From IMG/VR virus record IMGVR_UViG_3300045988_081534: 17,976 nucleotides of DNA; one strand, written 5' to 3'. Shown in pieces: positions 3,078-14,523 of the stretch. The notes beneath the pieces are model-generated. The model saw only the letters and a program-made list of their open reading frames with translations. It was not told the DNA's origin and searched no databases. The first letter of the stretch is position 1. Each line of letters begins with the position of its first letter. The translations under genes were made by a program, and so were the position numbers. This stretch comes from a virus.

Positions 3078-3710
3078 GAACCGATCGGGTCTAGATAAAA
3101 AGATCGCTTTAACGGAATCCCGCGGAAAAGATTTTTCCTTTTCAAATAGTTAGCAACATCTTTGCTATTGTTTGCTGTATCTTTAATGGTTTTAATTCTG
3201 TGAATATCAAGAAATTTTGAGAAAAACGAGGCATTTTTTGCTTATTTTTAAGTAAATTTGTTAGAAAAACGCGCATTTTTGCAAGATTTTAGAGGTTTTT
3301 CGTTATATTTTGCGATAACAAGAGGTAAAAGATTGCGGGCCGATCGGTTTATCTAGCTAAAATCTCTATTTTTGAGCTATTTTTATCATAAAATCGTGTT
3401 AAACCGATCGGTTCCGCGAAAGAAATCTCTGGTCGTATTTGTTTTTCATAGCTATATCTTTGCTATTGCTAGTTGTATTTTAGAAAGTTTTGGTACTGTG
3501 AATACTTGACAATTTTAAGATTTTTATTATAAAAAATTGGACGAGAGAGCCAATATTGCTGGACCGATCGGGGCTAGATAAAGGAAGAAGTAAAGTAGGG
3601 CCGATCGGTGTTTGGAAGAGGGCGTTATGAATTTTGGGAAAATTGCTATGAAGTTGCGTTATGGCCAAGTTGCTATGAAAATTTTGCGCTATGGTCCGAT
3701 CGGGGAAATT
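3078..3710. repeat. noncoding repeat-rich region: 6 CCGATCGG palindromes (plus one at 2401), composite CCGATCGG-g(g/t)CTAGATAAA motif in both orientations, ~140-bp imperfect direct repeats (about 3078-3220 vs 3400-3540), tandem ttgctatgaa..ttgcg.tatgg units
   Basis: CCGATCGG at 3082,3338,3404,3563,3601,3697; ctttgctattg...ctgtgaata units at 3150-3215 and 3452-3520; gaaaaacg.g.catttttgc twice (3210-3235, 3262-3285). Confidence 0.5.
3507..3540 (+). promoter_or_regulatory. candidate rightward promoter TTGACA-16-TATAAA feeding a ~240-nt region that ends at the bidirectional terminator 3757-3785
   Basis: cttgacaattttaagatttttattataaaaaa; a degenerate copy of the same unit lies at 3190-3215. Confidence 0.35.
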
Positions 3711-3737
3711 CGGGCCGAGTCGCCCGCGACCGGCCCG
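3711..3737. other. pure-GC nested palindrome cgggccg-a-gtcgc-ccg-gcgac-cggcccg
   Basis: 7-bp outer arms plus 5-bp inner arms; same class of GC palindrome recurs at 5503,6896,7782,9434,10867,12560. Confidence 0.5.
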
Positions 3738-3756
3738 CTCAAAATTTTGCATAAAA

Positions 3757-3785
3757 AAATCTCCCCATAAGGGGAGATTTTTCTT
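3757..3785. terminator. bidirectional rho-independent terminator (atctcccc-ataa-ggggagat with A-run on one side, T-run on the other)
   Basis: 3759-3778 hairpin; ends the minus-strand gene 3785..4135 and any plus-strand transcript from 3507-3540. Confidence 0.65.
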
Positions 3786-4135
3786 TAGTTGAGAATTATT
3801 GGATATGCCTTGCGAATAACCACCGTAACCATGGCCGGGGGAGTGTCGCACAAGAAACGATCATTTCTGATAAAACGACCAATTCCCATATTCTGCCACA
3901 AAGTCCGGTTTACATCCTCGTATCGTAGGGTATTATACTTGGAAAGTTTGATATGCCAATCATAGATAAAGGAACCATCTTCCGGCATGGTGTAATCTGG
4001 CGCCCGCTTATAATTTCTCGTATGCTCTGCGGCTCTGCGTTCAAGGTCATTTGTCGTACCAATCTTGAGAATATAGCGCCCCTTTTTGTCGATATAATGT
4101 CCGACATATAGGAACTCTTTTCCCCTTGTCTGCAA
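3785..4135 (-). CDS. T5orf172 / GIY-YIG-like domain protein
   Basis: FLYVGHYIDKKGRYILKIGTTNDLERRAAEH...P...E matches the YVY...KIG.T....R..E motif of T5orf172 (DUF4357/Mug113) GIY-YIG-related domains; start is TTG in the track (start uncertain); stop TAA. Confidence 0.65.
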   Translation of the reverse strand: MQTRGKEFLYVGHYIDKKGRYILKIGTTNDLERRAAEHTRNYKRAPDYTMPEDGSFIYDWHIKLSKYNTLRYEDVNRTLWQNMGIGRFIRNDRFLCDTPPAMVTVVIRKAYPIILN

Positions 4136-4191
4136 ACTAACTATAACTTGCCTCTTTTCTGGTAGGGCCGGGGTAGGCCGACCCTACCCCG

Positions 4192-4509
4192 TTATTTCTT
4201 CGGCTTACGCTTTTGCACAAGCGTCAACTCGAAACTATCCCCACCAATAGAAAACGCAATCTGTCTTTCCTTGTTAGTAATAGACAAGTCAGCGATAGAG
4301 AATTGACTGTTTTTTTCCAAAAACTCTGCCAATTCCGCAATTATACCGCCTTTCGTGGCGTTTGGCTTGCGTTGCCGTGTAGTGAACTTATATGCGGTTG
4401 GCTGTTTGCGCGTTCCAGCATGGGCAAACTTTTGAGCGATTTTCGCCTTTTCTGGCGGTAAATCGTATTCAGTCTTTTTATCAGCCTCTACCGCCTTATC
4501 ATAGGCCAA
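4192..4509 (-). CDS. hypothetical basic protein, about 105 aa, TTG start
   Basis: GAGGAGG SD 8 nt upstream of TTG at 4509; no in-frame ATG upstream before a TAA; K/R-rich C-terminus; hairpin ggggtagg/cctacccc (4170-4190) directly after the stop. Confidence 0.55.
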   Translation of the reverse strand: MAYDKAVEADKKTEYDLPPEKAKIAQKFAHAGTRKQPTAYKFTTRQRKPNATKGGIIAELAEFLEKNSQFSIADLSITNKERQIAFSIGGDSFELTLVQKRKPKK

Positions 4510-4647
4510 TAAATCTGCCTCCTCTTCCGGCGTTAATTGCAGGGCTTTATACCTTGCAATCCGTTCAGCGTCACTAATGCGACTGGATATAATATCACCC
4601 CCATATTATAAGTTAGGGCGGGGATTTTCACCCCGCCCTATACGGGG

Positions 4648-5049
4648 TTACGCCATCTTAAAGAGGGACTTGCCCTTCTTCTCCGTGCAGACTACTCGAC
4701 CATCGAGTTTCAACTGCCGCACAAGAGCGGCGACCTTCTGGTTAGAATAGGCCGTCAGATCAGGAATAGCCTTAAAAATTTCCGTGCAGGTCACGCCATC
4801 GGTATCGGCGTCCAGACCAGCCAGATACTCCATAATCTGCTCCTTAAAGTTTTCGTTCTCCTGCTGGGTGGGAGTCAGCTTCTTGTCACCGCTGGAGCTA
4901 TTCTTCTTACGCAGAAGCTCCAGCTCATGGTCAATGATAGTAATGGCCACCTCGATGGTAGTGCCATACTTTACCTCGCCGTCAGTCAAGAGGGCCTTAA
5001 TGTCCTCAAAACGCTGGGCCTTGGTAATGCGGATTTTCTTCTCGTCCAT
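4648..5049 (-). CDS. hypothetical protein with C-terminal winged-helix-like segment; served by three tandem promoters
   Basis: likely start is the 4th Met (MDEKK...) with AAAGGA 8 nt upstream; TEIFKAIPDLTAYSNQKVAALVRQLKLDGRVV resembles a wH recognition unit; stop TAA followed by hairpin agggcgggg/ccccgccct (4613-4638). Confidence 0.6.
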   Translation of the reverse strand: MDEKKIRITKAQRFEDIKALLTDGEVKYGTTIEVAITIIDHELELLRKKNSSSGDKKLTPTQQENENFKEQIMEYLAGLDADTDGVTCTEIFKAIPDLTAYSNQKVAALVRQLKLDGRVVCTEKKGKSLFKMA

Positions 5050-5097
5050 AATATACATCCTTTCTGGTTTTTAGGACTGTCCTTGTCCTTTGATTAT

Positions 5098-5126
5098 ATT
5101 GTACCACACTATTTGGTACTTGTCAA
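5098..5126 (-). promoter_or_regulatory. promoter P3: TTGACA-17-TGgTACAAT (extended -10)
   Basis: minus strand cctcttgacaagtaccaaatagtgtggtacaatataatc; -35 at 5121-5126, -10 at 5098-5103. Confidence 0.55.
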
Positions 5127-5192
5127 GAGGTTTTTCAAACTTTTTTCAAGAACTTTTGCTCTTTACTTGTTTGCCCTCTCAACCTCCCTTAT

Positions 5193-5221
5193 AGTGTAAC
5201 ACACTTTGGAAAGTTTGTCAA
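5193..5221 (-). promoter_or_regulatory. promoter P2: TTGACA-17-TACACT
   Basis: minus strand gggcttgacaaactttccaaagtgtgttacactataagg. Confidence 0.4.
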
Positions 5222-5269
5222 GCCCTTTTTATTTAATTTTCAAGGTGCATTGCCTTGTTTTCTGTACTT

Positions 5270-5298
5270 ATTATAGCACATCTTCAAAGGCTTGTCAA
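5270..5298 (-). promoter_or_regulatory. promoter P1: TTGACA-17-TATAAT (perfect consensus)
   Basis: minus strand ctcttgacaagcctttgaagatgtgctataataagtac. Confidence 0.55.
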
Positions 5299-5403
5299 GA
5301 GATTCTTGAAAGATTTTTGAGAAATTCGCTGTCGCTGTCTGCCGTTCGTCTCTCTCACTTTCTGAATGTATTTTACCACAAGCAAAAGCAGATTGCAAGC
5401 GTC

Positions 5404-5529
5404 AAATTGCACAAAAAATCGGAATTTTGGGAGAGAGTTTTTGTGCAAAATTCTGCACAAAAACGGGACGAAATTTTTGTGCAACATTACCATTGAAAAA
5501 TTCGGCCCGCGTCAGCCATCCGCGGGCCG
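5404..5529. promoter_or_regulatory. control module upstream of P1-P3: two inverted repeats ATTGCACAAAAA...TTTTTGTGCAA (5404-5452, 5453-5486) and GC palindrome cggcccgcg-N9-cgcgggccg (5503-5529)
   Basis: read from sequence; same TTGCACAA/TTGTGCAA arrangement recurs at 6841,7727,9380,10809,12513. Confidence 0.45.
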
Positions 5530-5554
5530 TCGACCTTTTAGATATAAAAAAAAT

Positions 5555-5576
5555 AAGAGGGCTGTAAAGCCCTCTT
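5555..5576 (-). terminator. rho-independent terminator aagagggc-tgtaaa-gccctctt followed (minus strand) by a T8 run
   Basis: stop codon of 5575..5760 lies inside the 3-prime arm; near-identical copies at 6949-6968 and 7840-7859. Confidence 0.6.
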
Positions 5577-5760
5577 AAATATCAATCATATAACTATAAA
5601 CCATATCCCAAAGCGGCATATCATCCAGAAGGATATTTACAGTCAAAAGTCCGGTTTCTGTCGGCCCATCAACAAACCATCCCAGCCGCTGCATAAGGTG
5701 AATAACCTCATAGACATAATCGGGGTCAAGATGGTTAGTGGTAAACTGTCTTGAAAACAT
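5575..5760 (-). CDS. hypothetical protein, 61 aa
   Basis: SD AAAGGAAAAG upstream of ATG; start lies just after hairpin cgggcggggc/gcccctacccg (5777-5801) that contains the stop codon of the upstream exonuclease gene. Confidence 0.5.
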   Translation of the reverse strand: MFSRQFTTNHLDPDYVYEVIHLMQRLGWFVDGPTETGLLTVNILLDDMPLWDMVYSYMIDI

Positions 5761-5787
5761 TTCTTTTCCTTTCTATCGGGCGGGGCT

Positions 5788-6579
5788 TTAAGCCCCTACC
5801 CGAATTGTCGGATTATTTTTCAAACTTGCGGAAAGTTGACGCTGAAAATCTGTCATAGGCGGAAACTCTCTTTTATTCTCATACAGGGCCTTTCTCATGG
5901 GCTTATGCTGACGCATACAATACCACATGATTTCCGCCTCAATCAGAACATCCTCAAGCCCCGTATGACTTTCTTCAAAATCGGTATTGCCAGAGATAAA
6001 CCGCCACACGATTTCCGCAGTCTTGCGGGGGACACCATTAGCCTGGACATATCCGTTTTCCTGACAGAATTTCTTATAAGTGGGCATATTGCAGATAACA
6101 TCCTGTGTCATCTTCATAATATCCCAAATCTCCACGCTGTCAAACGGGAACCAATAACGCCACTTGGAGTAGGTCACATAACGCTGTGTAACTCTCAAGG
6201 CATTATCGTCAAATCTGGCATTATAAGCCGCAACTTCCTTAATGCCGTATCGCTCAATGGTATTGAGCATAACTTGGCGGATTTCATAAGTGGTAGCCAT
6301 TTTACGAGTGCCGGCCCGCAGTTCCTCAATATAGCGGGGAATTTTCCAATTATAATAAGCAGTCCGCATGAGATCCCGCTCATCGTTGAAAATGTCCCTA
6401 TTTACAAAACTGGCAGTTTCATAAATATTGCCCTTGGTATCCACTACCGCCCATCCGCAATCATAGACAAGAACGCAACTCATATCCATGCGGGCTTTGC
6501 CGTTTTCGTCAGTTTCAGTCAGTGTGTTAGCAGTTTCAGTATCAACCACCAAAACATAGTGTCTACGCTTATCAATCAT
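5788..6579 (-). CDS. DEDDh (DnaQ-like) 3-prime to 5-prime exonuclease, 263 aa
   Basis: ExoI YVLVVDTETAN, ExoII AAYNARFDDNAL, ExoIII HTGLEDVLIEAEIMW; SD AAGGAAG 9 nt upstream; the 250-aa plus-strand ORF 5836..6588 is its antisense shadow. Confidence 0.75.
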   Translation of the reverse strand: MIDKRRHYVLVVDTETANTLTETDENGKARMDMSCVLVYDCGWAVVDTKGNIYETASFVNRDIFNDERDLMRTAYYNWKIPRYIEELRAGTRKMATTYEIRQVMLNTIERYGIKEVAAYNARFDDNALRVTQRYVTYSKWRYWFPFDSVEIWDIMKMTQDVICNMPTYKKFCQENGYVQANGVPRKTAEIVWRFISGNTDFEESHTGLEDVLIEAEIMWYCMRQHKPMRKALYENKREFPPMTDFQRQLSASLKNNPTIRVGA

Positions 6580-6611
6580 AATCTTTGACTTCCTTTCCTC
6601 TTGTTGAGTTT

Positions 6612-6640
6612 ATTATAGCACATACCATGCTTGATGTCAA
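6612..6640 (-). promoter_or_regulatory. perfect consensus promoter TTGACA-17-TATAAT for the exonuclease gene
   Basis: minus strand cttgacatcaagcatggtatgtgctataat. Confidence 0.6.
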
Positions 6641-6804
6641 GAGGAAAAGGAAATTTTTATTGCGATTTACTGCAAGCTACTGGGCATTAGAACGGCCTAT
6701 TCTAACGGCGTTCACTCGACTTACGACACAATATAAATTTACTTCCTTTACTTTCTAAGAGTTCGCGACCTCTTGATTTCTTGGCCTTCCCCTCTTGACA
6801 AATA

Positions 6805-6922
6805 TATAATACCATACTTTCGGGATAATTACAAGATGGCAAATTGCACAAAATTTGCAAGCCAAAATTGTGCAACATCGACAAAAACAAAAACTCGGCT
6901 CGCCGCGTGCGCCAGCGAGCCG
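6805..6922 (-). promoter_or_regulatory. control module: promoter TTGTAA-17-TATTAT (6805-6833), inverted repeat AAATTGCACAAAA...AAAATTGTGCAAC (6841-6876), GC palindrome cggctcgc-N11-gcgagccg (6896-6922); no intact gene follows this promoter
   Basis: read from sequence; downstream of the promoter there is an AAGGAAG SD (about 6736-6742 on the minus strand) but no start codon. Confidence 0.35.
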
Positions 6923-6948
6923 CCCAAACGATATTAAAGAGTAAAAAT

Positions 6949-6968
6949 AAGAGGGCCGAAGCCCTCTT
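6949..6968 (-). terminator. rho-independent terminator aagagggc-cgaa-gccctctt
   Basis: identical stem-loop to 7840-7859; stop of 6967..7155 inside the stem. Confidence 0.6.
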
Positions 6969-7155
6969 AATATCCAAGATATTCTTTATTGATAATCTCG
7001 TCAAGCCAATAGCTCAAATCTTCAAGCGAAATATCGTCATCAATTTCATTGTCGGCCATAGCCTGATCAATTTGACCAATGAGAATGGACGCATTTTTCA
7101 ATACTTGTCGCTCTTCCTCGCTGAGGATAAGCCTATTAACCTTTCTATTCTTCAT
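6967..7155 (-). CDS. hypothetical acidic protein, 62 aa
   Basis: SD AAGGAAG 8 nt upstream; clean ORF to TAA. Confidence 0.5.
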   Translation of the reverse strand: MKNRKVNRLILSEEERQVLKNASILIGQIDQAMADNEIDDDISLEDLSYWLDEIINKEYLGY

Positions 7156-7195
7156 TTACAAAACTTCCTTTCTTATTTTAAGATTGACTGGTGGA

Positions 7196-7660
7196 TTACT
7201 CTACCAGTCGCCATAAGGCCGTAGGTAAATCTTCATGTGGCTCGATTGTTTCCCCTAAATGCCAGCCATCCCGCACACTTTTATTATCATCAATCAAAAT
7301 GAAATTGCTAATTCCCGGCTCAAAGTGTTTCCGCACACAATTTGCTTTTGTTGTGCCATATTCCACAAGGTGGACTTTATGTGCGGGGAAGTTGTATTTT
7401 GCAAGCCAAGTGCGCTTTGCGTCACGAACAGCAGTTTTATATGAGTTAGAACTGTCTTTTGCAAGCCAACTGATAACCCGAATTTCCCAGCCCTGCTCAA
7501 TGAGTTTATTAAGAACGGTATTCAATTCTTCTATATCGCAAAGAGGTTTGGCGACTGTATATGGATAGGGATTTTCATTCATTAAATCTTTTAACCAATC
7601 ATCCACGCCGTACAGGTCAGCGATTGTTCCATCCATATCAAAGCAGAGCATCTTTTTCAT
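7196..7660 (-). CDS. HAD-superfamily 5-prime(3-prime)-deoxyribonucleotidase (NT5C-like)
   Basis: motif I CFDMDGTIADL at N-terminus, C-terminal FILIDDN motif; overall NT5C-like spacing; SD AAGGAAG. Confidence 0.7.
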   Translation of the reverse strand: MKKMLCFDMDGTIADLYGVDDWLKDLMNENPYPYTVAKPLCDIEELNTVLNKLIEQGWEIRVISWLAKDSSNSYKTAVRDAKRTWLAKYNFPAHKVHLVEYGTTKANCVRKHFEPGISNFILIDDNKSVRDGWHLGETIEPHEDLPTALWRLVE

Positions 7661-7692
7661 TTTGATTTACTTCCTTTCTTTAGGTTGATTAA

Positions 7693-7808
7693 AGTATATC
7701 AGATTTCGGGATAGAAAACAAGAGGCAAACTGCACAAAATTTCGGCTGGAAAATTGTGCAACTTCTACAAAAGAGAAAATTCGGCGCGCCACGCACGTTA
7801 GCGCGCCG
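7693..7808 (-). promoter_or_regulatory. control module: promoter TTGTTT-17-TATACT (7693-7721), inverted repeat AAACTGCACAAAAT...AAAATTGTGCAAC (7727-7762), GC palindrome cggcgcgc-N11-gcgcgccg (7782-7808)
   Basis: read from sequence; spacer contains tatcccgaaa as in the 6805-6833 promoter. Confidence 0.4.
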
Positions 7809-7839
7809 CCGAGAAGCCTATTCAAAAAATGGGATAAAA

Positions 7840-7859
7840 AAGAGGGCCGAAGCCCTCTT
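7840..7859 (-). terminator. rho-independent terminator aagagggc-cgaa-gccctctt
   Basis: hairpin plus T-run on the minus strand immediately after the SpoVT-like stop. Confidence 0.6.
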
Positions 7860-8321
7860 TTAACTTTCACATATATTTGCAAGAAATCTTGCAGAAAGTT
7901 TAACCATGTCATGGACAGATTCTTCGTTATTGCTATTTTTATAGCAAATAAAACCAACCTGGTCGCCATTCACAAGAATTGGTGTAATAAACATACTTTC
8001 CCATTTTGTCGCCGAACTGCGAATATCAATCCAGTCATCGGGAACTCTTGTAATTCCAAAGGAACGCGGCCCGCATAAAATTCCATCATTGTCAAAAATA
8101 GCCGCGGCGATTCCGTTAGATGAAAGGGCATTTTGCATTTGTTTAGCGTAAGAGGAAAATTCTCCCATTATAGAATATTTCTTAAAAACTACGCCGCCAT
8201 CTTCTTCAAGAAAAATCTCTAATGGGTCGCCTTCTCTAATATGAAGGTTTCTACGGATTTCCTTTGGAATTACTATCCGGCCCAAATCATCAATACGGCG
8301 CACAATTCCAGTAGCTTTCAT
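7860..8321 (-). CDS. spoVT: SpoVT-like regulator: AbrB-type swapped-hairpin N-domain plus GAF-like C-domain
   Basis: MKATGIVRRIDDLGRIVIPKEIRRNLHIREGDPLEIFLEEDGGVVFKKY is near-canonical AbrB/SpoVT N-domain; C-terminus ...GFICYKNSNNEESVHDMVKLSARFLANICES parallels the SpoVT GAF tail; 153 aa. Confidence 0.8.
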   Translation of the reverse strand: MKATGIVRRIDDLGRIVIPKEIRRNLHIREGDPLEIFLEEDGGVVFKKYSIMGEFSSYAKQMQNALSSNGIAAAIFDNDGILCGPRSFGITRVPDDWIDIRSSATKWESMFITPILVNGDQVGFICYKNSNNEESVHDMVKLSARFLANICES

Positions 8322-8331
8322 TTTTATCTGC

Positions 8332-8362
8332 GGGAGTGCAAGATTTATAGTCTTGCACTCCC
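8332..8362 (-). promoter_or_regulatory. 12-bp-stem hairpin gggagtgcaaga/tcttgcactccc 10 nt upstream of the SpoVT-like start codon; only SD-like GGGAG lies inside the stem
   Basis: read from sequence; sister hairpin at 10422-10452. Confidence 0.45.
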
Positions 8363-8373
8363 TTCCTCCCTTC

Positions 8374-8760
8374 TTAATCCAGTTCTTTCAACATCCGTTC
8401 GAGGTCAGCTTTAGTACCACCCAACTCAAGCGTAAGAATAATTTCCGTTACGGCATTTTTCTCCCAGTCGCTAACTTCCCGCATGGCCTTTTTCTTCTCG
8501 TTCTCCATAGCGGGGTAAATACAATCCTGGCAAGCCTCTACCAGCCGGTCATTATATCTGCGGAAACTCATCCCCTTGTTTTTAACCTCCGAAAGAAGTT
8601 CGTCGTTAAGGGCTTTTACCGCCTGCTTAACTTTCTCCTGCATGATTTTACACTCTGTCTCATAAGCGGAAAAGGTTTCATGGACAGCCTGCCTTTTGAT
8701 TTCAGCCTTTACTCCAACTTCCTTTTCAATATACTCCCGAACAACCTTACTAACACGCAT
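8374..8760 (-). CDS. hypothetical protein, about 128 aa
   Basis: ATG with AAGGAAG 10 nt upstream (track start TTG two codons earlier); charged, helical-looking; conserved Cys pair CQDC. Confidence 0.55.
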   Translation of the reverse strand: MRVSKVVREYIEKEVGVKAEIKRQAVHETFSAYETECKIMQEKVKQAVKALNDELLSEVKNKGMSFRRYNDRLVEACQDCIYPAMENEKKKAMREVSDWEKNAVTEIILTLELGGTKADLERMLKELD

Positions 8761-8822
8761 TTCCAAAACTTCCTTTCTTAATTTTAATTTTTATTTATCG
8801 GGGTCGCCCCTTCCATGGTCTT

Positions 8823-8851
8823 ATTGTACCATAGTTGGGGCGATTTGTCAA
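8823..8851 (-). promoter_or_regulatory. promoter TTGACA-17-TGgTACAAT
   Basis: minus strand ggttgacaaatcgccccaactatggtacaataag. Confidence 0.5.
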
Positions 8852-8855
8852 CCCC

Positions 8856-9008
8856 TTACATCAAAGTTTTTGCAAGATATGCGAACATTAAGATTTCCGC
8901 CGCAAACATGATTTCAAGTCCTATGCAATCTTTTTCAATAGCGGCTACAAATTGCCATACCAGACACAGAACAAAAGCAATCAGAATTATCATGGTAAAA
9001 GTTGTCAT
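8856..9008 (-). CDS. small membrane protein, 50 aa
   Basis: internal start MTTFTMIILIAFVLCLVWQFVAA... with GGGGTGA 5 nt upstream, 4 nt after the TGA stop of the upstream gene; two hydrophobic helices. Confidence 0.5.
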   Translation of the reverse strand: MTTFTMIILIAFVLCLVWQFVAAIEKDCIGLEIMFAAEILMFAYLAKTLM

Positions 9009-9012
9009 ATAC

Positions 9013-9270
9013 TCACCCCGCAAAGGAAACTTCCGCAAAGTTAATATTGAAACGCTCCCATTCGCTTTCCATGCCTAACATCATATCATGGAAAAGGTCA
9101 TCACGATTTTTATATCCATCTTCTTCCAGAATAGCCTCCCATTCTCCATCGTCATATTGATTTTCCAGATAATCCAACGCAGACTTGCGGGCGGCAATGG
9201 TATTAGACGCTACACAGATAGGTTTATCGTCGTATCCATCCGTAACTAAAATCATTTTCTTTTCTTCCAT
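9013..9270 (-). CDS. hypothetical acidic protein, 85 aa
   Basis: SD AAAGGAAAG; clean ORF ending TGA. Confidence 0.55.
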   Translation of the reverse strand: MEEKKMILVTDGYDDKPICVASNTIAARKSALDYLENQYDDGEWEAILEEDGYKNRDDLFHDMMLGMESEWERFNINFAEVSFAG

Positions 9271-9322
9271 GATTTTTCTTTCCTTTCTTTCGAGGTGTTT
9301 CTATCTCCCTCTTTCTGATAAT

Positions 9323-9460
9323 AATATACCACAGGCAAATCAGAAAGTCAAGCGATTTTAGGAAAAAATTCTTCGTCAGATTGCACAACAATTCGAGTCT
9401 AAAATTGTGCAAATTGCCTCTTGATAAAAAATTCCGGCCGCGCCTATAGTGCACGGCCGG
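9323..9460 (-). promoter_or_regulatory. control module: promoter TTGACT-17-TGgTATATT (9323-9351), inverted repeat ATTGCACAAC...AATTGTGCAA with TTCGTCA heptamer (9372-9412), GC palindrome ccggccg-N13-cggccgg (9434-9460)
   Basis: read from sequence. Confidence 0.45.
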
Positions 9461-9478
9461 GCGATCGAATAAAAAAAG

Positions 9479-9500
9479 AACCTCCTGAATTTCAGGAGGT
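9479..9500 (-). terminator. rho-independent terminator acctcctgaa-t-ttcaggaggt preceded by A8 (T-run on the minus strand)
   Basis: 10-bp stem; downstream of the AbrB-like gene. Confidence 0.6.
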
Positions 9501-9542
9501 CATTAATTTCTGCATACCAACAACTCCCTTTCTTTTGAGAAG

Positions 9543-9776
9543 TCAATCGGCATTTTCAACAATCTTTAATCCGTTTGCTTGGATAATTTTCATAGCTTCT
9601 TCAAGCGAGGAATCAACCGATCCGCAGTCGATACAGATATATTTTCTGCCATCTTTTACCATAGTAGTAAAATAGTATTCTTGGCCAGAAACAAGGCCCA
9701 TCTACTCTCGCAGTCTTACTGGAATCATGATACGCCCACTTGAATCTAATTTCCTTGAGAAAGTAGTTTCTTGCAT
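9543..9776 (-). CDS. AbrB/MazE-family swapped-hairpin DNA-binding protein, 77 aa, with one in-frame TAG (9702-9704) read as sense
   Basis: MQETTFSRKLDSSGRIMIPVRLRE-x-MGLVSGQEYYFTTMVKDGRKYICID fits the AbrB N-domain pattern (GRI.IP...R..LG...G......V.DG.I.I) across the TAG; no SD; stop TGA; the plus-strand ORF 9421..9675 overlaps and is rejected. Confidence 0.55.
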
Positions 9777-9864
9777 TTTGATAAATAAATTCTAGTGACC
9801 TAGGCTCGTGCGAAAAACGACTCCATCACGGGAATCGCCGATTTAGAACAATCGGAAGGAACAT

Positions 9865-9981
9865 TTACCACTCGCAAGGCATTTTCTGGCAGAACTGAGA
9901 CATAGGGTAATTTTTACAAGAATCCTAGTTCAAACAGAACTCCAAAATAACCGCGAGTGCTTTCAGCACTTCTAAGGTCAT
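9865..9981 (-). CDS. possible small Cys-rich ORF, 38 aa, one in-frame TAG
   Basis: SD AAAGGAG 8 nt before ATG; MTLEVLKALAVILEFCLN-x-DSCKNYPMSQFCQKMPCEW; weak support. Confidence 0.2.
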
Positions 9982-10014
9982 TAGAAAAACTCCTTTCTTT
10001 ATTTTTCTATAATT

Positions 10015-10072
10015 ATTATAATATATTTTTTTGAAAAAATCAATAGGGCCGGCATTACGCCAGCCCTAATCT
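10015..10072 (-). promoter_or_regulatory. promoter TTGATT-17-TATAAT (10015-10043) preceded by GC hairpin agggctggc-gtaat-gccggccct (about 10050-10072)
   Basis: read from sequence. Confidence 0.4.
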
Positions 10073-10182
10073 CTGTAACCAAACCAGATGGTATTTACCA
10101 ATGTGAAGTAGAACTGTGCCATATCCCTTATTTGTCCAAACAGTGGAACCGATAGGATATGTATGCGGTAAACGCTCAATAC

Positions 10183-10398
10183 TCACTTTAGTTCCACCTC
10201 CTCGAAAGCTCTAATTTTTAGCAGATAATTATATAAGGCTCTATCTTGTTTGTCGCCGGTATTAAAATCAAGAGTACGAACACAGCCGGTAACATTGGAA
10301 TTAAGAGGATGATTCAAACACCAACCAGCCATATTACAAATTGTGTCTCCAAACTCCGCAGATTTTTCTACACTTTCAAATTTAATAACAGCAATCAT
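10183..10398 (-). CDS. hypothetical protein, 71 aa
   Basis: strong SD AGGAGG; preceded by hairpin 10422-10452. Confidence 0.55.
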   Translation of the reverse strand: MIAVIKFESVEKSAEFGDTICNMAGWCLNHPLNSNVTGCVRTLDFNTGDKQDRALYNYLLKIRAFEEVELK

Positions 10399-10421
10399 AT
10401 TTATTCCTCCTTTTTTATCGT

Positions 10422-10452
10422 GGGGAGTGGAGATTTATGGCCTCCACTCCCA
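10422..10452 (-). promoter_or_regulatory. 10-bp-stem hairpin gggagtggag/ctccactccc between two genes, 13 nt upstream of the AGGAGG SD
   Basis: shares GGGAGTG arm and AT-rich loop with the 8332-8362 hairpin. Confidence 0.45.
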
Positions 10453-10461
10453 CAGGTTTTC

Positions 10462-10701
10462 TTAACCATCTACATAAATGATTAGATTGTTGCCTCTTGC
10501 TTGAATACCAGTTACCGGAAGTCCCAGCACCCATTCCTTAGACGCCTCAATGACGTCTCCTCCCAGGGTTATCTTGTGATCAGGTAGCTCATGGTAATGA
10601 GCTTGGGTATTCTCATTGATAATTTCGACCCCTTCCCCGTCAAAGAACATGGTATCTTCTGCGAGCGGAGAAAGCAGACCTGCAATCATTTTCAAAGTCA
10701 T
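10462..10701 (-). CDS. hypothetical protein, 79 aa
   Basis: SD GAAAGGAAG; clean ORF to TAA. Confidence 0.55.
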   Translation of the reverse strand: MTLKMIAGLLSPLAEDTMFFDGEGVEIINENTQAHYHELPDHKITLGGDVIEASKEWVLGLPVTGIQARGNNLIIYVDG

Positions 10702-10755
10702 TTCTTTTACTTCCTTTCAAATTCTTTTTGTGACCTTGCCCCTCTGGACAAGTAT

Positions 10756-10895
10756 ATAATAACACATGACAAGAGGAATGTCAAGTAATTTCGGGAGAAA
10801 ATCTTTCGTCAAATTGCACAGACTTTCGATCATATAATTGTTGAAACTGCCGGATAAATAAAAATTCGGGCCGCGGCGCACGCTGGCGGCCCGGC
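10756..10895 (-). promoter_or_regulatory. control module: promoter TTGACA-17-TATTAT (10756-10784), half-site TTCGTCAAATTGCACAGAC (10809-10825), GC palindrome cgggccgc-N13-gcggcccg (10867-10895)
   Basis: read from sequence. Confidence 0.45.
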
Positions 10896-10926
10896 GAAAA
10901 GTCAATATGGAAAAGTGCATAAAAAT

Positions 10927-10957
10927 GACTGGCAATCTTTGTGCAGATTGCCAGTCA
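10927..10957 (-). terminator. rho-independent terminator gactggcaatc-N9-gattgccagtc preceded by an A-run (T-run on the minus strand)
   Basis: 11-bp stem. Confidence 0.6.
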
Positions 10958-10969
10958 AGTATTATTCCT

Positions 10970-11203
10970 TTACAGCTCCATGGTTTCCATGAGATAGCCC
11001 GTGCCCATCGGCACCTCCCGCAGATTGCTGGGACTTATACGCAACTTATATTTCCTATTGATTTTATTCGCCGCACTTGTCTTATCTCTTGCTTGGACAA
11101 TTACTGGTATATGGAGTTTATTCAGAGTGGGCTTATTAAAACTGAAATATCCCATCTCTCTGCGCTTGCGGCCCATGGCGTCGATATAAGTCCCTCTATA
11201 CAT
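10970..11203 (-). CDS. hypothetical basic protein, 77 aa
   Basis: SD TAGGAGG; clean ORF. Confidence 0.5.
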   Translation of the reverse strand: MYRGTYIDAMGRKRREMGYFSFNKPTLNKLHIPVIVQARDKTSAANKINRKYKLRISPSNLREVPMGTGYLMETMEL

Positions 11204-11216
11204 TTTTTTCCTCCTA

Positions 11217-11369
11217 TTATTTAGTCATGAGAACGAACATATTATATTCGCTGTGCTGTGGGTTTGGCTCACAGTTATCCGCCACTATATCAGCCCAACT
11301 AAGAACTGCCCAGAGTAGGAGAGCGGCACAAATGCCGCCTCCTATCCGCTTAATAATTCTCATTTCCAT
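11217..11369 (-). CDS. small membrane protein, 50 aa; start overlaps the stop of the upstream gene (ATGGAAATGA)
   Basis: MEMRIIKRIGGGICAALLLWAVLSWA... hydrophobic helix; not in the ORF track (below 60 aa). Confidence 0.35.
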   Translation of the reverse strand: MEMRIIKRIGGGICAALLLWAVLSWADIVADNCEPNPQHSEYNMFVLMTK

Positions 11370-11662
11370 TTCTTTGCCTCCTGTTCTTTAACCCATTCAG
11401 TACCGATTGTATCTCCGACCATAGCAACCTTATATTCGTCTTCGCTTGCAATTCTGGTATGCAGATTGCTATTGATAAACTTTCTATTGATATAAGCCCA
11501 GTGTGGCATATAGGCCACTCGCATGGCATTAAAAGCATCCAGGTCTAAGATAATGCCGTCCTCTACCTCTGCGGAACGCACATTCATCTTATACCGCAAA
11601 AGTTTAATAAATTCACGCTTTCTAAAAGTAGGCCCAACGAACCACTTAATATAATTGTTCAT
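11360..11662 (-). CDS. hypothetical protein, 100 aa
   Basis: SD GGGAGAAAGGA; clean ORF. Confidence 0.55.
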   Translation of the reverse strand: MNNYIKWFVGPTFRKREFIKLLRYKMNVRSAEVEDGIILDLDAFNAMRVAYMPHWAYINRKFINSNLHTRIASEDEYKVAMVGDTIGTEWVKEQEAKKWK

Positions 11663-11708
11663 AGTCTTTTATCCTTTCTCCCCGTATAGCCGTTAGGTCA
11701 GCTTCTTT

Positions 11709-11855
11709 TTAATCTACGATTTCTCCACTGGATAAATCCACAATCCAATGATTAGGATTGACTATCTCGTGACTGACCTTCCATCTTGCCATTGAAAGGG
11801 TGGATGGTTCATAATAGCGCATTTTCTCATTGGCTAAAACTTGTAACTGATACAT
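11709..11855 (-). CDS. possible small protein, 48 aa
   Basis: AAGGGG 8 nt before ATG; MYQLQVLANEKMRYYEPSTLSMARWKVSHEIVNPNHWIVDLSSGEIVD. Confidence 0.3.
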   Translation of the reverse strand: MYQLQVLANEKMRYYEPSTLSMARWKVSHEIVNPNHWIVDLSSGEIVD

Positions 11856-11886
11856 ATAGTATGCCCCTTTCTTTTAATTATTATAA

Positions 11887-11918
11887 CCCTGCCTTACCTT
11901 GTGTTTTGCAAGGCAGGG
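11887..11918 (-). other. 9-bp-stem hairpin ccctgcctt/aaggcaggg after the stop of 11930..12304; no T-run
   Basis: read from sequence. Confidence 0.4.
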
Positions 11919-11929
11919 TTTATAAACTG

Positions 11930-12304
11930 TTATCCTCTAATTTCTTCTTCTTGGGTCTTTGTCGCCCAATCAAAAGAGGTACGAACATCGGAAGGTCTGC
12001 GGAATTGCTCTGCTTCGGCCTTTGTCCCGCCTAATGCCATAGCATAGGCTTTCCAGTCAACCGTTCCTTTTGCGGTAGTTTCTTTATATACCACCGCTTT
12101 CGCCTTACCCTGCATTTGTACCGTGCCATATAGATAACTTGTTTTGTCCGTAGCCTTAAAAGCCTTACCTAATCTGGAAAATAGCTCTTTAGCCTTAGCC
12201 TTAGCTGCTTTCTCCGCCGCCTCCGCCGCAGACTTAGCCATCTTAGCGGCCATATACTCCATAATAATGGCTCGATCTTCATTGGTAAAATCAATCTTTT
12301 TCAT
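11930..12304 (-). CDS. hypothetical Ala/Lys-rich protein, about 124 aa
   Basis: start MKKIDF with SD AAAGGGAG; the track ORF extends upstream through the promoter to an unsupported TTG. Confidence 0.55.
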   Translation of the reverse strand: MKKIDFTNEDRAIIMEYMAAKMAKSAAEAAEKAAKAKAKELFSRLGKAFKATDKTSYLYGTVQMQGKAKAVVYKETTAKGTVDWKAYAMALGGTKAEAEQFRRPSDVRTSFDWATKTQEEEIRG

Positions 12305-12356
12305 ACTCTTTTGACTCCCTTTCTTTTTGTGGTGTGGTTCTCTTTTGTTCTGGCTG

Positions 12357-12571
12357 TATTGTATCAAACCTTTAGCAGTTTGTCAATACCTTTTTTGAAA
12401 TTTTTTAATTTTCAAAGTGCCGTGCTTTTGTCTTTGTCCTACTGGACAAGTCCAGTTTACCACCAAAATGTTCACTTGTCAATAGTTTTTTTGAAATTTC
12501 TTTCTCTCTCTTTTGCACAAAATAAATAACATCTTGTTGTGCAGTTTGCATAAACCCTTTACGCGCGCGTA
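12357..12571 (-). promoter_or_regulatory. control module with two tandem promoters (TTGACA-17-TgaTACAAT at 12357-12385; TTGACA-17-TGgTAAACT at 12454-12482), palindrome actggac-aa-gtccagt at 12443-12458, inverted repeat TTTTGCACAAAA...TGTTGTGCAGTTT (12513-12544), GC palindrome tacgcgcgcgta (12560-12571)
   Basis: read from sequence. Confidence 0.45.
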
Positions 12572-12744
12572 TTCCTTTAGGGGCGTGCTTTCTTGCTTTC
12601 GTACTTTAACGAGTGAAAGAGGCCAACTACACTTCAATACTTTACCATGTGAAAGAGGGGCGTGTATTTTGGGAAAAACTGGAAATTTTTTTGTAAAATC
12701 GTTCTGCCACGCCATTTCAAAATCTAAATCGACTTTTCAATCTC

Positions 12745-12785
12745 AATAACGAAAAAGAGAGAAGAACTCACTTCTTCTCTCCGCA
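12745..12785 (-). terminator. rho-independent terminator gagaagaa-ctcac-ttcttctc plus T-run on the minus strand, ending the FolD/PARG/Pth2 operon
   Basis: 8-bp stem; stop codon of 12768..12911 within it. Confidence 0.6.
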
Positions 12786-12911
12786 TTTACACTTCTTTTT
12801 TAAATTATATATAATATGATCTTCTACTTTGTAAATTGGATATAATTCTCCACAGACTGCGCATATATTATAATAATGCTTGCCGTCAAACCATACTAAT
12901 ACTTTATCCAT
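12768..12911 (-). CDS. small zinc-ribbon-like protein, 47 aa
   Basis: MDKVLVWFDGKHYYNICAVCGELYPIYKVEDHIIYNLKKKCKCGEKK with CxxC...CxC; ATG overlaps the stop of the lipoprotein gene (ATGGATAA). Confidence 0.35.
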   Translation of the reverse strand: MDKVLVWFDGKHYYNICAVCGELYPIYKVEDHIIYNLKKKCKCGEKK

Positions 12912-13146
12912 CGTCGGTTGCCTCAAAACTAAAAATCAAATTATATCCATCCTCAGTTTCTATCGTTTCATATCCTTTTAAGATATATCCATCCTCTAGT
13001 TTAATATTAATCGCATCAGATCTCCACATTGTAGGAATATACTCTAGCCTTGGATAACGATTGTTCTCCTCCACGCAAGCAGTCAACAATAGTAAAATCA
13101 AAACTATATTAATTATAAAGCTGATACTTCTTCCCAATTTTGTCAA
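12904..13146 (-). CDS. small secreted lipoprotein, about 80 aa (candidate superinfection-exclusion type)
   Basis: TTG start with GGAGG 9 nt upstream; signal peptide MTKLGRSISFIINIVLILLLLTAC with lipobox LTAC; the track ORF starts at an earlier TTG (13176). Confidence 0.55.
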   Translation of the reverse strand: MTKLGRSISFIINIVLILLLLTACVEENNRYPRLEYIPTMWRSDAINIKLEDGYILKGYETIETEDGYNLIFSFEATDDG

Positions 13147-13546
13147 TTTCTTCCGCCTCCATTGGCCTAAATCCAATACACGTCAAAGTCCCTTCCGGGC
13201 CTTCGCGTTCTAACTCTGTTCTACAAGCATCATAGATAAGCCAATAATCCTTATTCTCTTCCCATCCTAATTCTTCTGCTATCTTAACAGCCTTTAACAA
13301 ATCATTCTTATTCTTCGCTCTACAAACTACTTTGGTCTCCGCTTCCGCTATCCAATTATGGAATAAGTCTCTATCGAGGCTTATTCCTATATGATACATA
13401 AGACCGTCTCTTTCTTTAACAACTTCTTTACTTCCCCAATATAACTTTTCCAAAAGAAAAGCAATAGAAGCATGGGAAACTTGTGCGGCAAGTTTCCCTG
13501 GAGACATATTTAAGTCTCGCCTCGCAATAATTAATTGCTTGAACAT
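13109..13546 (-). CDS. pth2: Pth2-family peptidyl-tRNA hydrolase
   Basis: MFKQLIIARRDLNMSPGKLAAQVSHASIAF... and C-terminal LIYDACRTELEREGPEGTLTCIGFRPM match PTH2 (archaeal/eukaryotic type) motifs; GGAGG SD; start overlaps the PARG-like gene by 16 nt. Confidence 0.75.
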   Translation of the reverse strand: MFKQLIIARRDLNMSPGKLAAQVSHASIAFLLEKLYWGSKEVVKERDGLMYHIGISLDRDLFHNWIAEAETKVVCRAKNKNDLLKAVKIAEELGWEENKDYWLIYDACRTELEREGPEGTLTCIGFRPMEAEEIDKIGKKYQLYN

Positions 13547-14298
13547 TTTTCCAAAACCTCCAAGAAAATTCTAAAATTGCGGGAATTGCGGTTTGGAATC
13601 GCAAAATAGATATTTGGAATATTATAATTGCGGGCTGCGTTTACGAGCAAGGTAGCGACCGTTGATGGATCTTGCATAAAAACACCACAACCCCAGGCTC
13701 CCGCGATTAAATTTTCCACTCCTTTAGCCTCGGCAATTTGATACATAAAATTAATTCTCTCTTCCATTATCCTATTGTTTAGAGAAAGAGGAACTTGCTG
13801 ATAAGTATGTGCTGTTCTATAATTAGGAGAAGCACAAGTAATTACATCAGCTAATTTTCTACTATCGTCTTTTTCAAAGACTACATCAGGAGTATAGATA
13901 GCTCTATCAAGATATAGGGCTCGATTCAGTCTCTGTCTATTCCATGCGTAATAAGTATCATCAAAAGCAAGAAGAATAGGGTAAAGGTTGCTTTCGTGAC
14001 ACAATGCCTCTTCTTGTGCAGAGCTGCCTCCAAGGAAGTAACCACCTGGATGTTTATAGCTTGCATAATTTAAGATCGCAGTCTTGCTCCGATCGGTTAA
14101 ACCGAATAGACAGGATACACTATCTTGGTCTTTAAGATAAAAGGTATTATGGTGGGTTTCTCGCGGTTTTTGCGGAAAAGGAAGATTGGGGCCAAAAATT
14201 TCAGAGTTTATAATTGCGCGATCTGTATCTTCCTTGAGTCTCACTTTAATGTCTGCGTAATGCGATTGCGCGTGTTGTTTGAGCTCTTCTCGTTTCAT
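13531..14298 (-). CDS. bacterial-type PARG-like macrodomain protein (DUF2263/TIGR02452), ADP-ribose glycohydrolase family
   Basis: NYASYKHPGGYFLGGSSAQEEALCHESNLY contains the GGG-X6-8-QEE PARG signature; GAWGCGVF macrodomain motif; SD GGAAGAAAGGA. Confidence 0.75.
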   Translation of the reverse strand: MKREELKQHAQSHYADIKVRLKEDTDRAIINSEIFGPNLPFPQKPRETHHNTFYLKDQDSVSCLFGLTDRSKTAILNYASYKHPGGYFLGGSSAQEEALCHESNLYPILLAFDDTYYAWNRQRLNRALYLDRAIYTPDVVFEKDDSRKLADVITCASPNYRTAHTYQQVPLSLNNRIMEERINFMYQIAEAKGVENLIAGAWGCGVFMQDPSTVATLLVNAARNYNIPNIYFAIPNRNSRNFRIFLEVLEKCSSN

Positions 14299-14342
14299 TT
14301 GCAGTTTCCTTTCTTCCGTGCGGTTGGGCAGAAGTGGATAAT

Positions 14343-14522
14343 TTAATTATCCCAATCTTCAAATAAAGTGTGTAAACTATTTGTTTCCGCCGCCAATCTC
14401 TTTAAATATTCTTTAAGAATTTTATTTTCTTTAACTTTAATTGCATAATCGCAAGTATTGTCGCAGTCTGGTGTGTACTACCGACCGAATCTATTATAAC
14501 AATAATCAATACAAGGACACAT
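14343..14522 (-). CDS. possible small Cys-rich protein, 59 aa, one in-frame TAG
   Basis: ATG 1 nt after the TAA of the upstream gene; MCPCIDYCYNRFGR-x-YTPDCDNTCDYAIK...; weak support. Confidence 0.25.
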
Positions 14523-14523
14523 T

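Follow-up and report, generated by a model that had tools for sequence, protein, structure and literature searches.

We analysed a 17,976-nt stretch of viral DNA (IMG/VR record IMGVR_UViG_3300045988_081534), referred to below as the window, on which all positions are numbered. The window holds five complete copies and two partial copies of one homologous intergenic module, all on the minus strand. These modules are probably composite regulatory cassettes that open the early operons of a large, uncultivated TAG-recoding phage of gut Clostridia and that also serve as linkers through which these operons are shuffled. The basis of this reading is the anatomy of the modules, the covariation of a GC-rich hairpin within them, the helical phasing of an inverted repeat (IR) with the promoter, and hybrid modules at the junctions of rearranged gene blocks; from these the rest of the reading is derived.

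Alignment of the minus-strand intergenic regions with MAFFT confirms that the modules lie where an earlier note on this DNA, made from the sequence alone, had placed them, and that they are homologous. A complete module comprises, in this order, a canonical, gene-specific terminator (T1), a GC hairpin 17-32 nt further on, an IR after another 18-21 nt, a -35/-10 promoter with a 17-bp spacer, and a Shine-Dalgarno sequence (Table 1). Six regions had been described as built from the same ordered parts. Five of them are complete, but the sixth, m12571, is partial and has neither T1 nor the 27-nt form of the hairpin; the other partial copy, m3787, stands at the downstream end of the array, beyond the range covered by the note. 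The promoters had been called near-consensus, which does not apply to three of them with a poor -35 hexamer (TTGTTT, TTGTAA and TTGCAA). The blocks between modules contain 2-5 genes each, so that the view of every small gene as an autonomous cassette was overstated and the units are operons. The proposal that the modules are repeated, ordered control units which insulate and probably co-regulate such blocks is supported. Other promoters and terminators without the repeat also stand inside and between the module-bounded blocks, and a consensus scan of the window lists 32 terminator-like sites where 12.6 are expected.

The modules are not peculiar to the window. Throughout, we compared 29 related loci (the window and 28 others), which contain 5-9 module copies per 20 kb. 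Among GenBank phages, a megablast search with the whole window returned a single 58-nt match, to phage phAss-1, and a sensitive blastn search with one module returned no match; hence the modules are not annotated in this phage collection. At gathering thresholds, Rfam recognizes no RNA family in the window.

The first arm of the IR, TTGCACAA, occurs ten times in the window against 0.56 expected, a count reached by none of 200 shuffles. Nine of these copies lie in modules and one lies inside a gene (4213-4220). Chance is excluded by these numbers and by those for the terminator-like sites. The spacing between the arms had been thought to vary. It is in fact constant at 16 nt (N16) in six IRs, and the only departure, N26 in m5577, is one helical turn longer and thus keeps the phase. 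A pattern scan of IMG/VR for TTGCACAA...TTGTGCA found the repeat on at least 120 viral contigs, and among the 137 matches listed 84 have exactly the N16 spacing. The palindrome extends outward to TGTCAA-N8-[IR]-N8-TTGACA, and in many phages the repeat stands between divergent promoters.

The distance between the repeat and the -35 hexamer is quantized. In the window the offsets are 8, 9, 8, 29, 29 and 30 bp, all six in one register. For viral loci, we used a search pattern that carries no promoter requirement and scored the best downstream promoter (n = 68): the offset is 8 or 9 in 30 loci, 18 or 19 in 20 and 29 in three, which places 53 of 68 in register. This puts the middle of the repeat at about -59.5, -70 or -80.5, on a single face of the helix. 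A phasing of 10.5 bp relative to the -35 hexamer is the classical signature of class I activator sites, which in E. coli CRP promoters are centred at -61.5, -71.5 and -82.5. The helical register suggests that a protein on the repeat probably interacts with RNA polymerase, and we regard it as strong, if indirect, evidence for such a contact. The identification of the repeat as an operator candidate, made earlier from the window, thus gains from the fixed N16 spacing and from a register that is maintained across many phages.

The combination of repeat and promoter is also rare by chance. A 20-base pattern consisting of the repeat with a -35 hexamer at +8 was run against 185,579 species genomes (596 Gb) and matched 55 stretches where about one is expected. 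Nearly all of them belong to Clostridia (Lachnospiraceae, Oscillospiraceae, Acutalibacteraceae, Coprococcus, Ruminococcus). Within the window, promoters at offsets 8-9 have a weak -35 hexamer and those at offsets 29-30 a good one. Because the most closely spaced promoters are the weak ones, we lean slightly towards a role of the repeat in recruitment or activation.

A hairpin in RNA or DNA is a poor description of the repeat, as its interior positions are neither complementary in single copies nor covarying when inspected by eye. Some phages, moreover, place a different operator inside the N16 spacer, which we also count against a hairpin. Four viral contigs (L018, L033, L051 and L120) carry the palindromic operator TATACTTACGTAAGTATA both in the N16 spacer and in the promoter spacer; in these phages two putative control elements are interleaved at one promoter. 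A literature search for the 8-mers of the repeat returned primers and unrelated sites, with the Spx element of trxB as the sole relevant match. At the trxB promoter of B. subtilis, the cis element for Spx and the alpha subunit C-terminal domain (alpha-CTD) of RNA polymerase is TTGAGCAA, with an AGCA motif at -45 to -42 (PMC2801614). The right half-site TTGTGCAA differs from it by one base. We nevertheless rejected an Spx/alpha-CTD element, since the GCA core is 3 bp more distant from the -35 hexamer here and forms part of a phased dyad, unlike Spx sites. Within the reach of our limited searches, an operator with this conserved spacing and helical phasing has no earlier description.

The GC palindrome noted earlier in each module is indeed present, but in the five complete modules and m3787 it takes the form of a hairpin of exactly 27 nt, with a stem of 8-10 bp and a loop of 7-11 nt. 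A(A/G)TTTT follows it directly on the 3' side in five of these six copies, the tail of m3787 being AATTTCC. The related loci yielded 38 distinct 27-nt variants, which align without gaps. Their CGG...CCG ends and the following A are invariant or nearly so, the loop has 7 nt, and the stem consensus is CGGnnCGC...GCGnnCCG, in which the inner positions vary freely while complementarity is kept. Across the variants 94.5% of the cells are paired, and at seven of the ten pairs both partners have changed, which concerns 71 cells. None of 500 shuffles reached the observed covariation score, and sliding the 3' partner by 1-3 columns as a control lowered pairing to 30-43%. Many arm sequences coexist within one genome, suggesting that selection acts on the folded single strand and arguing against a sequence-specific operator in double-stranded DNA. 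A second operator class, as had been proposed for the palindrome, is hence unlikely, given arms that change freely in one genome and yet stay complementary.

A run of 4-6 T residues stands 3' of the hairpin on the transcribed strand, with none on the opposite strand, and A(A/G) separates stem and run. The consensus scan lists three of the five hairpins of complete modules as terminator-like in full (9434-9460, 7782-7808 and 6896-6922); for 5503-5529 it lists only an inner 5-bp stem, and 10867-10893 is not listed. Minimum-free-energy RNA folds contain two separate hairpins per module, with z-scores of -3 to -6.6. The 27-nt hairpin, as part of the module, thus most likely serves as a back-up terminator or insulator behind a T1 that belongs to the upstream gene. 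This agrees with an insulating function suggested earlier, as the hairpin appears selected for structure and a T-run follows it. On its anatomy we rejected an N4-type hairpin promoter: such promoters have a loop of 3 nt, against 7-11 nt here.

Cassette exchange had been proposed as a test of the modules, and comparison of the related loci shows it as loss and gain of gene blocks, hybrid modules and changes of gene order. Four loci (L128-L131) are without the 1.65-kb block of four genes between the IRs of m9500 and m7859 and have a hybrid m9500/m7859 module instead. In L128, L130 and L131 the left part of the hybrid (T1, hairpin, spacer) derives from m9500 and the right part from m7859, with the switch inside TTGCACAATTTT. 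In L129 the switch lies in CGGAATTTT, just after the hairpin. The different switch points suggest two independent events at the same pair of modules.

A second polymorphism maps to the hairpin of m3787. Relative to the window, L001-L006 and L127 contain an insert of 1.06 kb, and L128-L131 one of 0.9 kb. The insert consists of a repeat, a promoter, two or three small open reading frames (ORFs) and a T1, flanked by two hairpins, where the window has a single hairpin and the junction falls exactly at its 5' base. The same type of insertion polymorphism distinguishes L151 from L133. In a survey of insertions and deletions in collinear alignments, for about eight of some 20 distinct size classes the two breakpoints map to the equivalent point of a module (hairpin start, +17, +30 or +45/47). 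Crossovers at or next to the hairpin are in line with the idea that the palindromes could be recombination sites. Furthermore, the gene for a HAD-type nucleotidase precedes the exonuclease operon in the window, lies within that operon in L137-L150 and follows the operon of the gene w26 in L135.

Combining these observations, we propose the following scheme. The upstream operon would end at its own T1, and the module hairpin, as back-up terminator or insulator, would shield the next promoter from read-through. The repeat would bind a dimer or tetramer of a factor in contact with RNA polymerase and in this way place all operons under common control; alternatively, the factor might shut the promoters off by holding the polymerase, in the manner of phi29 p4. 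As paralogues that share the short identical blocks CGGAATTTT and TTGCACAATTTT, the modules would act as recombination linkers by which self-sufficient gene blocks are deleted, inserted and re-ordered. The parts of the scheme that we infer are termination, the binding of a protein, the early timing and the direction (activation or repression) in which the repeat acts. Several observations weigh against it. The near-invariant A(A/G) between hairpin and U-run is not ideal for an intrinsic terminator, and the fixed size of 27 nt, the 7-nt loop and the CGG/CCG ends exceed the constraint that termination needs. Many repeat-linked promoters in other phages are already consensus (TTGACA, extended -10) and need no activator. 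With respect to shuffling, modules show a 2.2-fold and the hairpin a 5.5-fold excess of alignment breakpoints, but these counts do not represent independent events. The identity at the crossovers is short (3-12 nt), so that homologous recombination in the strict sense is not thereby demonstrated. Finally, L003 has a deletion (7927-9158) with both ends in genes and 9 nt of microhomology, in which modules are not involved.

In a different view, the repeat is an operator for a phage-encoded repressor, e.g., an AbrB-like or winged-helix protein made from the array, that shuts off or autoregulates the early operons, so that the modules would be co-repressed once the early phase is over. We consider this somewhat unlikely, with the following points in its favour: most linked promoters elsewhere are already consensus, early promoters have to be active while phage proteins are still absent, the extended palindrome takes in the -35 hexamer, the repeat stands between divergent promoters in many phages, in some of them beside Xre-type genes, and the double-repeat module m5577 precedes the winged-helix gene w26. 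Phi29 p4, moreover, represses from upstream sites through contact with RNA polymerase. The repeated operator of the repressor MrpR in phage SPbeta (SPBRE) offers another precedent (PMC10516654). Yet offsets of 18-30 bp leave no steric block of the -35 hexamer, the strict 10.5-bp phasing is the signature of class I activation, and the three most closely spaced promoters of the window have weak -35 hexamers. A factor of the Clostridia host might instead bind the repeat and make early expression depend on the host's condition, in which case the phage would have copied a host operator. Early promoters have to use host proteins only, the genome matches span several families of Clostridia, TTGTGCAA is one base from the Spx/alpha-CTD element TTGAGCAA (PMC2801614), and a few genuine chromosomal promoters have the repeat with a -35 hexamer at +8, among them those of two paralogous genes in L171 and of a gene in four Coprococcus species. 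However, about five independent chromosomal cases are near what chance provides (roughly 1-5 in 596 Gb), at least one fifth of the repeat loci carry the same phage early genes in the fetched stretch, and the Spx element lies 3 bp closer to the -35 hexamer and is neither a dyad nor phased. We therefore regard a host factor as unlikely.

The constraint on the hairpin beyond the needs of a terminator (27 nt, CGG...CCG ends, the following A, the 7-nt loop) could also mean that it is a structure-specific recombination site in the manner of integron attC sites, at whose base a dedicated enzyme inserts and excises promoter-bearing cassettes; the likeness to a terminator would then be secondary. In three comparisons (L001 against the window, L128 against the window and L151 against L133) the 0.9-1.06 kb cassette does join precisely at the 5' base of the hairpin, where only some 3-8 nt are shared, and a gene for a T5orf172-domain protein lies directly upstream of the m3787 hairpin. 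We find this very unlikely, since the precomputed Pfam assignments listed for the genes called within 10 kb of either side of the array in six contigs include no integrase or recombinase family, other junctions lie in the repeat or just after the hairpin and not at one fixed point, the hairpin has no attC-type core sites, the cassettes have promoters of their own, and the T-run stands 3' of the hairpin on the transcribed strand only. It is equally improbable that the modules are mere duplication relics of one ancestral promoter region and act as passive junctions, with no additional function for repeat or hairpin. The modules do align as homologues, junction homologies are short and some insertions or deletions avoid modules, but pairing of the hairpin is upheld by compensatory changes in 38 variants, distant phages with otherwise dissimilar DNA have kept the N16 spacing and the -35 register, and two independent crossovers hit the same module pair. 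More speculatively, and with little likelihood in our view, the 27-nt hairpin could be the recognition structure of an undescribed, structure-specific and integrase-free system that mobilizes phage cassettes, with the phased TTGCACAA dyad as a lineage-wide master switch for the mobilized early genes. If true, this would be an integron-like platform for gene capture whose cassettes bring their own regulated promoters.

Table 1. Modules, promoters and genes of the minus-strand array and its surroundings, with positions on the window
Feature	Position	Strand	Details
m12571 (partial)	12454-12570	-	Loop-less 10-bp GC palindrome ACGCGCGCGT 12561-12570; without T1 and 27-nt hairpin
m12571 IR	12513-12544	-	CTGCACAA-N16-TTGTGCAA
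m12571 promoter	12477-12482 (-35); 12454-12459 (-10)	-	TTGACA, 30 bp after IR; TAAACT
Second promoter downstream of m12571	12358-12386	-	
m10957	10756-10957	-	T1 10926-10957; hairpin 10867-10893, then AATTTTT
m10957 IR (degenerate)	10814-10845	-	TTCAACAA-N16-CTGTGCAA
m10957 promoter	10779-10784 (-35); 10756-10761 (-10)	-	TTGACA, 29 bp after IR; TATTAT
m9500	9323-9501	-	T1 9479-9501; hairpin 9434-9460, then AATTTTTT
m9500 IR	9381-9412	-	TTGCACAA-N16-TTGTGCAA
m9500 promoter	9346-9351 (-35); 9323-9328 (-10)	-	TTGACT, 29 bp after IR; TATATT
m7859	7693-7859	-	T1 7835-7859; hairpin 7782-7808, then AATTTTC
m7859 IR	7730-7761	-	TTGCACAA-N16-TTGTGCAG
m7859 promoter	7716-7721 (-35); 7693-7698 (-10)	-	TTGTTT, 8 bp after IR; TATACT
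m6968	6806-6969	-	T1 6948-6969; hairpin 6896-6922, then AGTTTTT
m6968 IR	6844-6875	-	TTGCACAA-N16-TTGTGCAA
m6968 promoter	6829-6834 (-35); 6806-6811 (-10)	-	TTGTAA, 9 bp after IR; TATTAT
Repeat-less consensus promoter downstream of m6968	6612-6640	-	
m5577	5370-5577	-	T1 5554-5577; hairpin 5503-5529, then AATTTTT
m5577 IR-a	5453-5484	-	TTGCACAA-N16-TTGTGCAG
m5577 IR-b	5407-5448	-	TTGCACAA-N26-TTGTGCAA
m5577 promoter	5393-5398 (-35); 5370-5375 (-10)	-	TTGCAA, 8 bp after IR-b; TAAAAT
Three repeat-less consensus promoters downstream of m5577	5270-5298; 5193-5221; 5098-5126	-	
m3787 (partial)	3711-3782	-	Downstream end of array; T1 3755-3782; hairpin 3711-3737; without IR and promoter
Further repeat-less promoters	8823-8851; 10015-10043	-	
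Different composite promoter	8823-8860	-	GGGGTTGACAAATCGCCCC...TGGTACAAT; -35 hexamer within short G/C stem-loop
Four-gene block between IRs of m9500 and m7859	7765-9381	-	85-aa ORF, membrane ORF, 128-aa ORF, SpoVT/AbrB-like gene
T5orf172-domain protein	3785-4135	-	Directly upstream of m3787 hairpin
w26	4648-5049	-	133 aa; first gene after double-IR module m5577; predicted C-terminal winged helix
Exonuclease-like gene	5788-6579	-	DEDD-like family phrog_20187
HAD-type nucleotidase	7196-7660	-	
SpoVT/AbrB-like gene	7860-8321	-	Pfam MazE_antitoxin; SpoVT_C match below Pfam cutoff
AbrB2 (AbrB-like)	9543-9776	-	77 aa; in-frame TAG 9702-9704, codon 25
PTH2-like peptidyl-tRNA hydrolase	13109-13546	-	
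Microbial PARG-like macro-domain protein	13531-14298	-	
FolD-like gene	14877-15701	-	4 in-frame TAGs
ORF adjoining array	16039-17154	+	11 in-frame TAGs; PHROG annotated sigma factor, E = 6e-39
ORF	17161-17976	+	7 in-frame TAGs

As to the factor that might bind the repeat, the SpoVT/AbrB-like or RHH proteins encoded in the window had been suggested. The SpoVT-like protein is a poor candidate and is not required: its gene is undetected in nine of the 29 related loci and reduced to a 21-residue match in a tenth (L003), and all ten loci without an intact gene keep their repeats. The 77-aa AbrB-like protein (AbrB2) occurs in all 29 loci, as do w26 and w27. By inference from their position and conservation only, AbrB2 and w26 are candidate trans-acting factors. 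The structural model of w26 has a mean pLDDT of 87.6, and its matches point to no specific family, being generic winged-helix proteins (PerR, ArsR, MarR, Z-alpha) with a best E-value of 3e-3. The in-frame TAG of AbrB2 appears to be shared by L002 and L003; L001 has an uninterrupted 77-aa gene call, and L127-L131 have full-length matches with an apparent sense codon at this position. Full-length AbrB2 would hence depend on suppression in some strains only.

Genes directly downstream of the repeats are diverse, and no single adjacent family of DNA-binding proteins is prominent. In the short stretches fetched around the repeat (175 loci), the families found are HAD nucleotidase (37 loci), exonuclease (36), w26 (34), w27 (26) and sigma-like (18). 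The window's own early genes are thus the commonest in repeat-bearing loci, suggesting that the repeat is mainly a hallmark of one broad phage lineage. AbrB-like genes co-occur with the repeat in only about ten of 120 short, unrelated viral loci, which is uninformative. The few repeat sites in true chromosomal contexts are flanked by ordinary housekeeping genes. In L171, the two paralogous genes with the repeat encode lipoproteins of about 485 aa by a crude ORF call, to which Pfam assigns no family, and the gene with the repeat at its promoter in four Coprococcus species encodes a secreted protein.

The source of the window is, as judged from gene content and code use, a predicted TAG-recoded phage of gut Clostridia with a genome of about 120-145 kb, related to phAss-1 and Enterococcus phage EF1. 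The exonuclease-like protein is also encoded on metagenome contigs as long as 144 kb and by 26 IMG/VR loci, and its nearest GenBank relatives are from Enterococcus phages such as EF1 (records of 134-142 kb) and from phAss-1, whose taxonomy line reads 'Caudoviricetes code 15 clade'. Clostridia were predicted as hosts of phAss-1 in the paper that describes it, which makes no mention of promoters, terminators or repeats (PMC10607447). Genes on the minus strand fill the window from about 3.7 to 15.5 kb. The flanks contain almost no long ORFs in the standard code and acquire them once TAG is read as sense, whereas the array genes (3785-14346) have no in-frame TAG except the one in AbrB2. Being almost free of in-frame TAG, the array probably represents the early region; it would use the standard code and be transcribed by host RNA polymerase with sigma-A. 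Later genes would need TAG suppression and probably also a phage sigma factor. The G+C content is 38-48% in the array (3000-15500) and about 30% in the flanks (1-3000 and 15500-17976), so that the array is distinct from its flanks in composition as well as in code use. The product of the sigma-factor-like ORF next to the array has a zinc-ribbon or HNH-like C-terminal tail.

Most genes flanked by modules match no Pfam or PHROG family. Among those that can be assigned, the PARG-like, PTH2-like, HAD, exonuclease and T5orf172 genes lie partly inside the module-bounded array and partly just upstream of it, and functions in host takeover or anti-defence are plausible for them. The promoter of m6968 is followed by a good Shine-Dalgarno sequence and no start codon (6640-6806); L002 and L132 have an extra small gene (x13) at this place, and the segment looks like the scar of a lost gene.

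Some features of the window stand apart from the modules. Tandem near-consensus promoters (TTGACA-17-TG-TAnAAT) at 5098-5298 and 12358-12482 on the minus strand are spaced about 75-95 nt apart, lie downstream of a repeat-type promoter and are each preceded by TTGAAAA/TTTCAAAAAA tracts; they may yield nested transcripts or short leader RNAs. The composite promoter at 8823-8860 is the sole stretch of the window that matches phAss-1 DNA. Its -35 hexamer forms part of the loop above a short GGGG...CCCC stem, an arrangement that resembles the subclass of promoter early stem-loop (PeSL) elements in which the stem-loop overlaps the -35 region, and its phAss-1 form, AAAAGGGG-TTGACA...-CCCCTTTT, is repeated at least seven times (locus L154, 1331-4309). 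The palindrome CCGATCGG has eight copies against 0.06 expected. Seven of them are grouped in a mostly non-coding stretch just past the last hairpin (2400-3703), one occupies the place expected for the IR in m3787, and a copy also lies at 14089-14096; the palindrome may be part of an origin or a packaging site, or a target of methylation or restriction. Tandem repeats at 1750-1927, with a 44-nt unit (2.6 copies, 92% matches) and a unit of about 24 nt, lie beside a small plus-strand ORF with one in-frame TAG (1220-1633), and more repeats of the ATAGTATT/CATGAAA type were seen by eye out to about 1650-1950. These repeats resemble a replication origin of the iteron type.

Nearly all knowledge of large TAG-recoding gut phages comes from metagenomes, and their transcription control is undescribed. 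The modules provide a sequence signature by which early operons in the standard code can be recognized throughout a broad lineage of Clostridia phages, and an operator with fixed spacing and helical phasing makes the search for its regulator directly testable. The wider array contains accessory early genes such as those for the PARG-like and PTH2-like proteins, the nucleotidase and the exonuclease. PeSL-style shuffling via regulatory cassettes would thus not be peculiar to T4-like phages and would shape the accessory early genes of an unrelated group. Compact, insulated promoter-terminator parts are, moreover, potentially reusable for engineering in Clostridia.

Individual properties of the modules have counterparts in several known systems. 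As in class I activator sites, a dyad stands upstream of the -35 hexamer at a distance that shifts by whole helical turns only. At the phi29 p4 sites, the inverted repeat stands upstream of sigma-A promoters and has a spacer of 15 bp; widely spaced half-sites at a Firmicutes phage promoter are a further point of likeness. Sequence and spacing differ from both CRP and p4 sites, and no CRP-family or p4-like protein was identified here. With integrons, the array shares small cassettes in the same orientation that are bounded by an imperfect, hairpin-forming palindrome, with one junction at the hairpin base. Integrons have an adjacent gene for an IntI-type tyrosine recombinase, and their attC sites measure 57-141 nt, have conserved R and L core boxes and bound cassettes without promoters. 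We rejected an integron, as the hairpin has 27 nt and no RYYYAAC/GTTRRRY cores, every block has its own promoter, and some junctions lie outside the hairpin; neither the precomputed Pfam assignments listed for genes within 10 kb of either side in six contigs nor the scans of window proteins returned a recombinase family.

Closer in organization is SPBRE of the Bacillus phage SPbeta, a repeated 15-bp operator bound by the master repressor MrpR, which has a tyrosine-recombinase-like fold and maintains lysogeny (PMC10516654). In both cases a short conserved element stands in many operon promoters of a Firmicutes phage (about 135 kb), and in SPbeta it places these operons under one regulator. The element described here differs: it is a dyad of 32 bp whose arms are N16 apart and which keeps phase with the -35 hexamer. 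No lysogeny module is seen in the window.

The closest counterpart is the PeSL of T4-type phages, which combines a strong sigma-70-like promoter with a terminator stem-loop in hyperplastic regions, and recombination between PeSLs shuffles the ORFs that they flank (Arbiol et al. 2010, PMC2839356; Comeau et al. 2014, PMC4122927). The statement in the earlier note that the architecture matches no described system was therefore too strong, since PeSL cassettes are of the same kind (PMC2839356, PMC4122927). Both are repeated intergenic composites of about 100-200 bp with a G/C-rich stem-loop and a sigma-70-type early promoter (here in five complete modules), both cluster in a variable region made up of small genes without known function, each cassette has its own promoter and terminator, and close relatives differ by insertions or deletions of flanked genes with chimeric motifs at the junctions. 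Mini-circles, i.e., circular excision products in infected cells and virions, are a trait of the T4 PeSL. PeSLs belong to T4-like myoviruses of Gram-negative hosts, whereas the present modules belong to a TAG-recoding phage with predicted Clostridia hosts, whose nearest described relative, phAss-1, is of siphovirus type. The two share no sequence similarity, and the PeSL stem has the consensus GGGG...CCCC, as opposed to CGGnnCGC...GCGnnCCG here. Unlike PeSL, the modules have two tandem terminators, the conserved one of which has a fixed 27-nt geometry, and a phased IR between terminator and promoter, where PeSL has an AT-rich tract upstream of the -35 hexamer. Hence, the element is best described as a PeSL-like family of terminator-operator-promoter cassettes, which is PeSL by function and not by descent or sequence.

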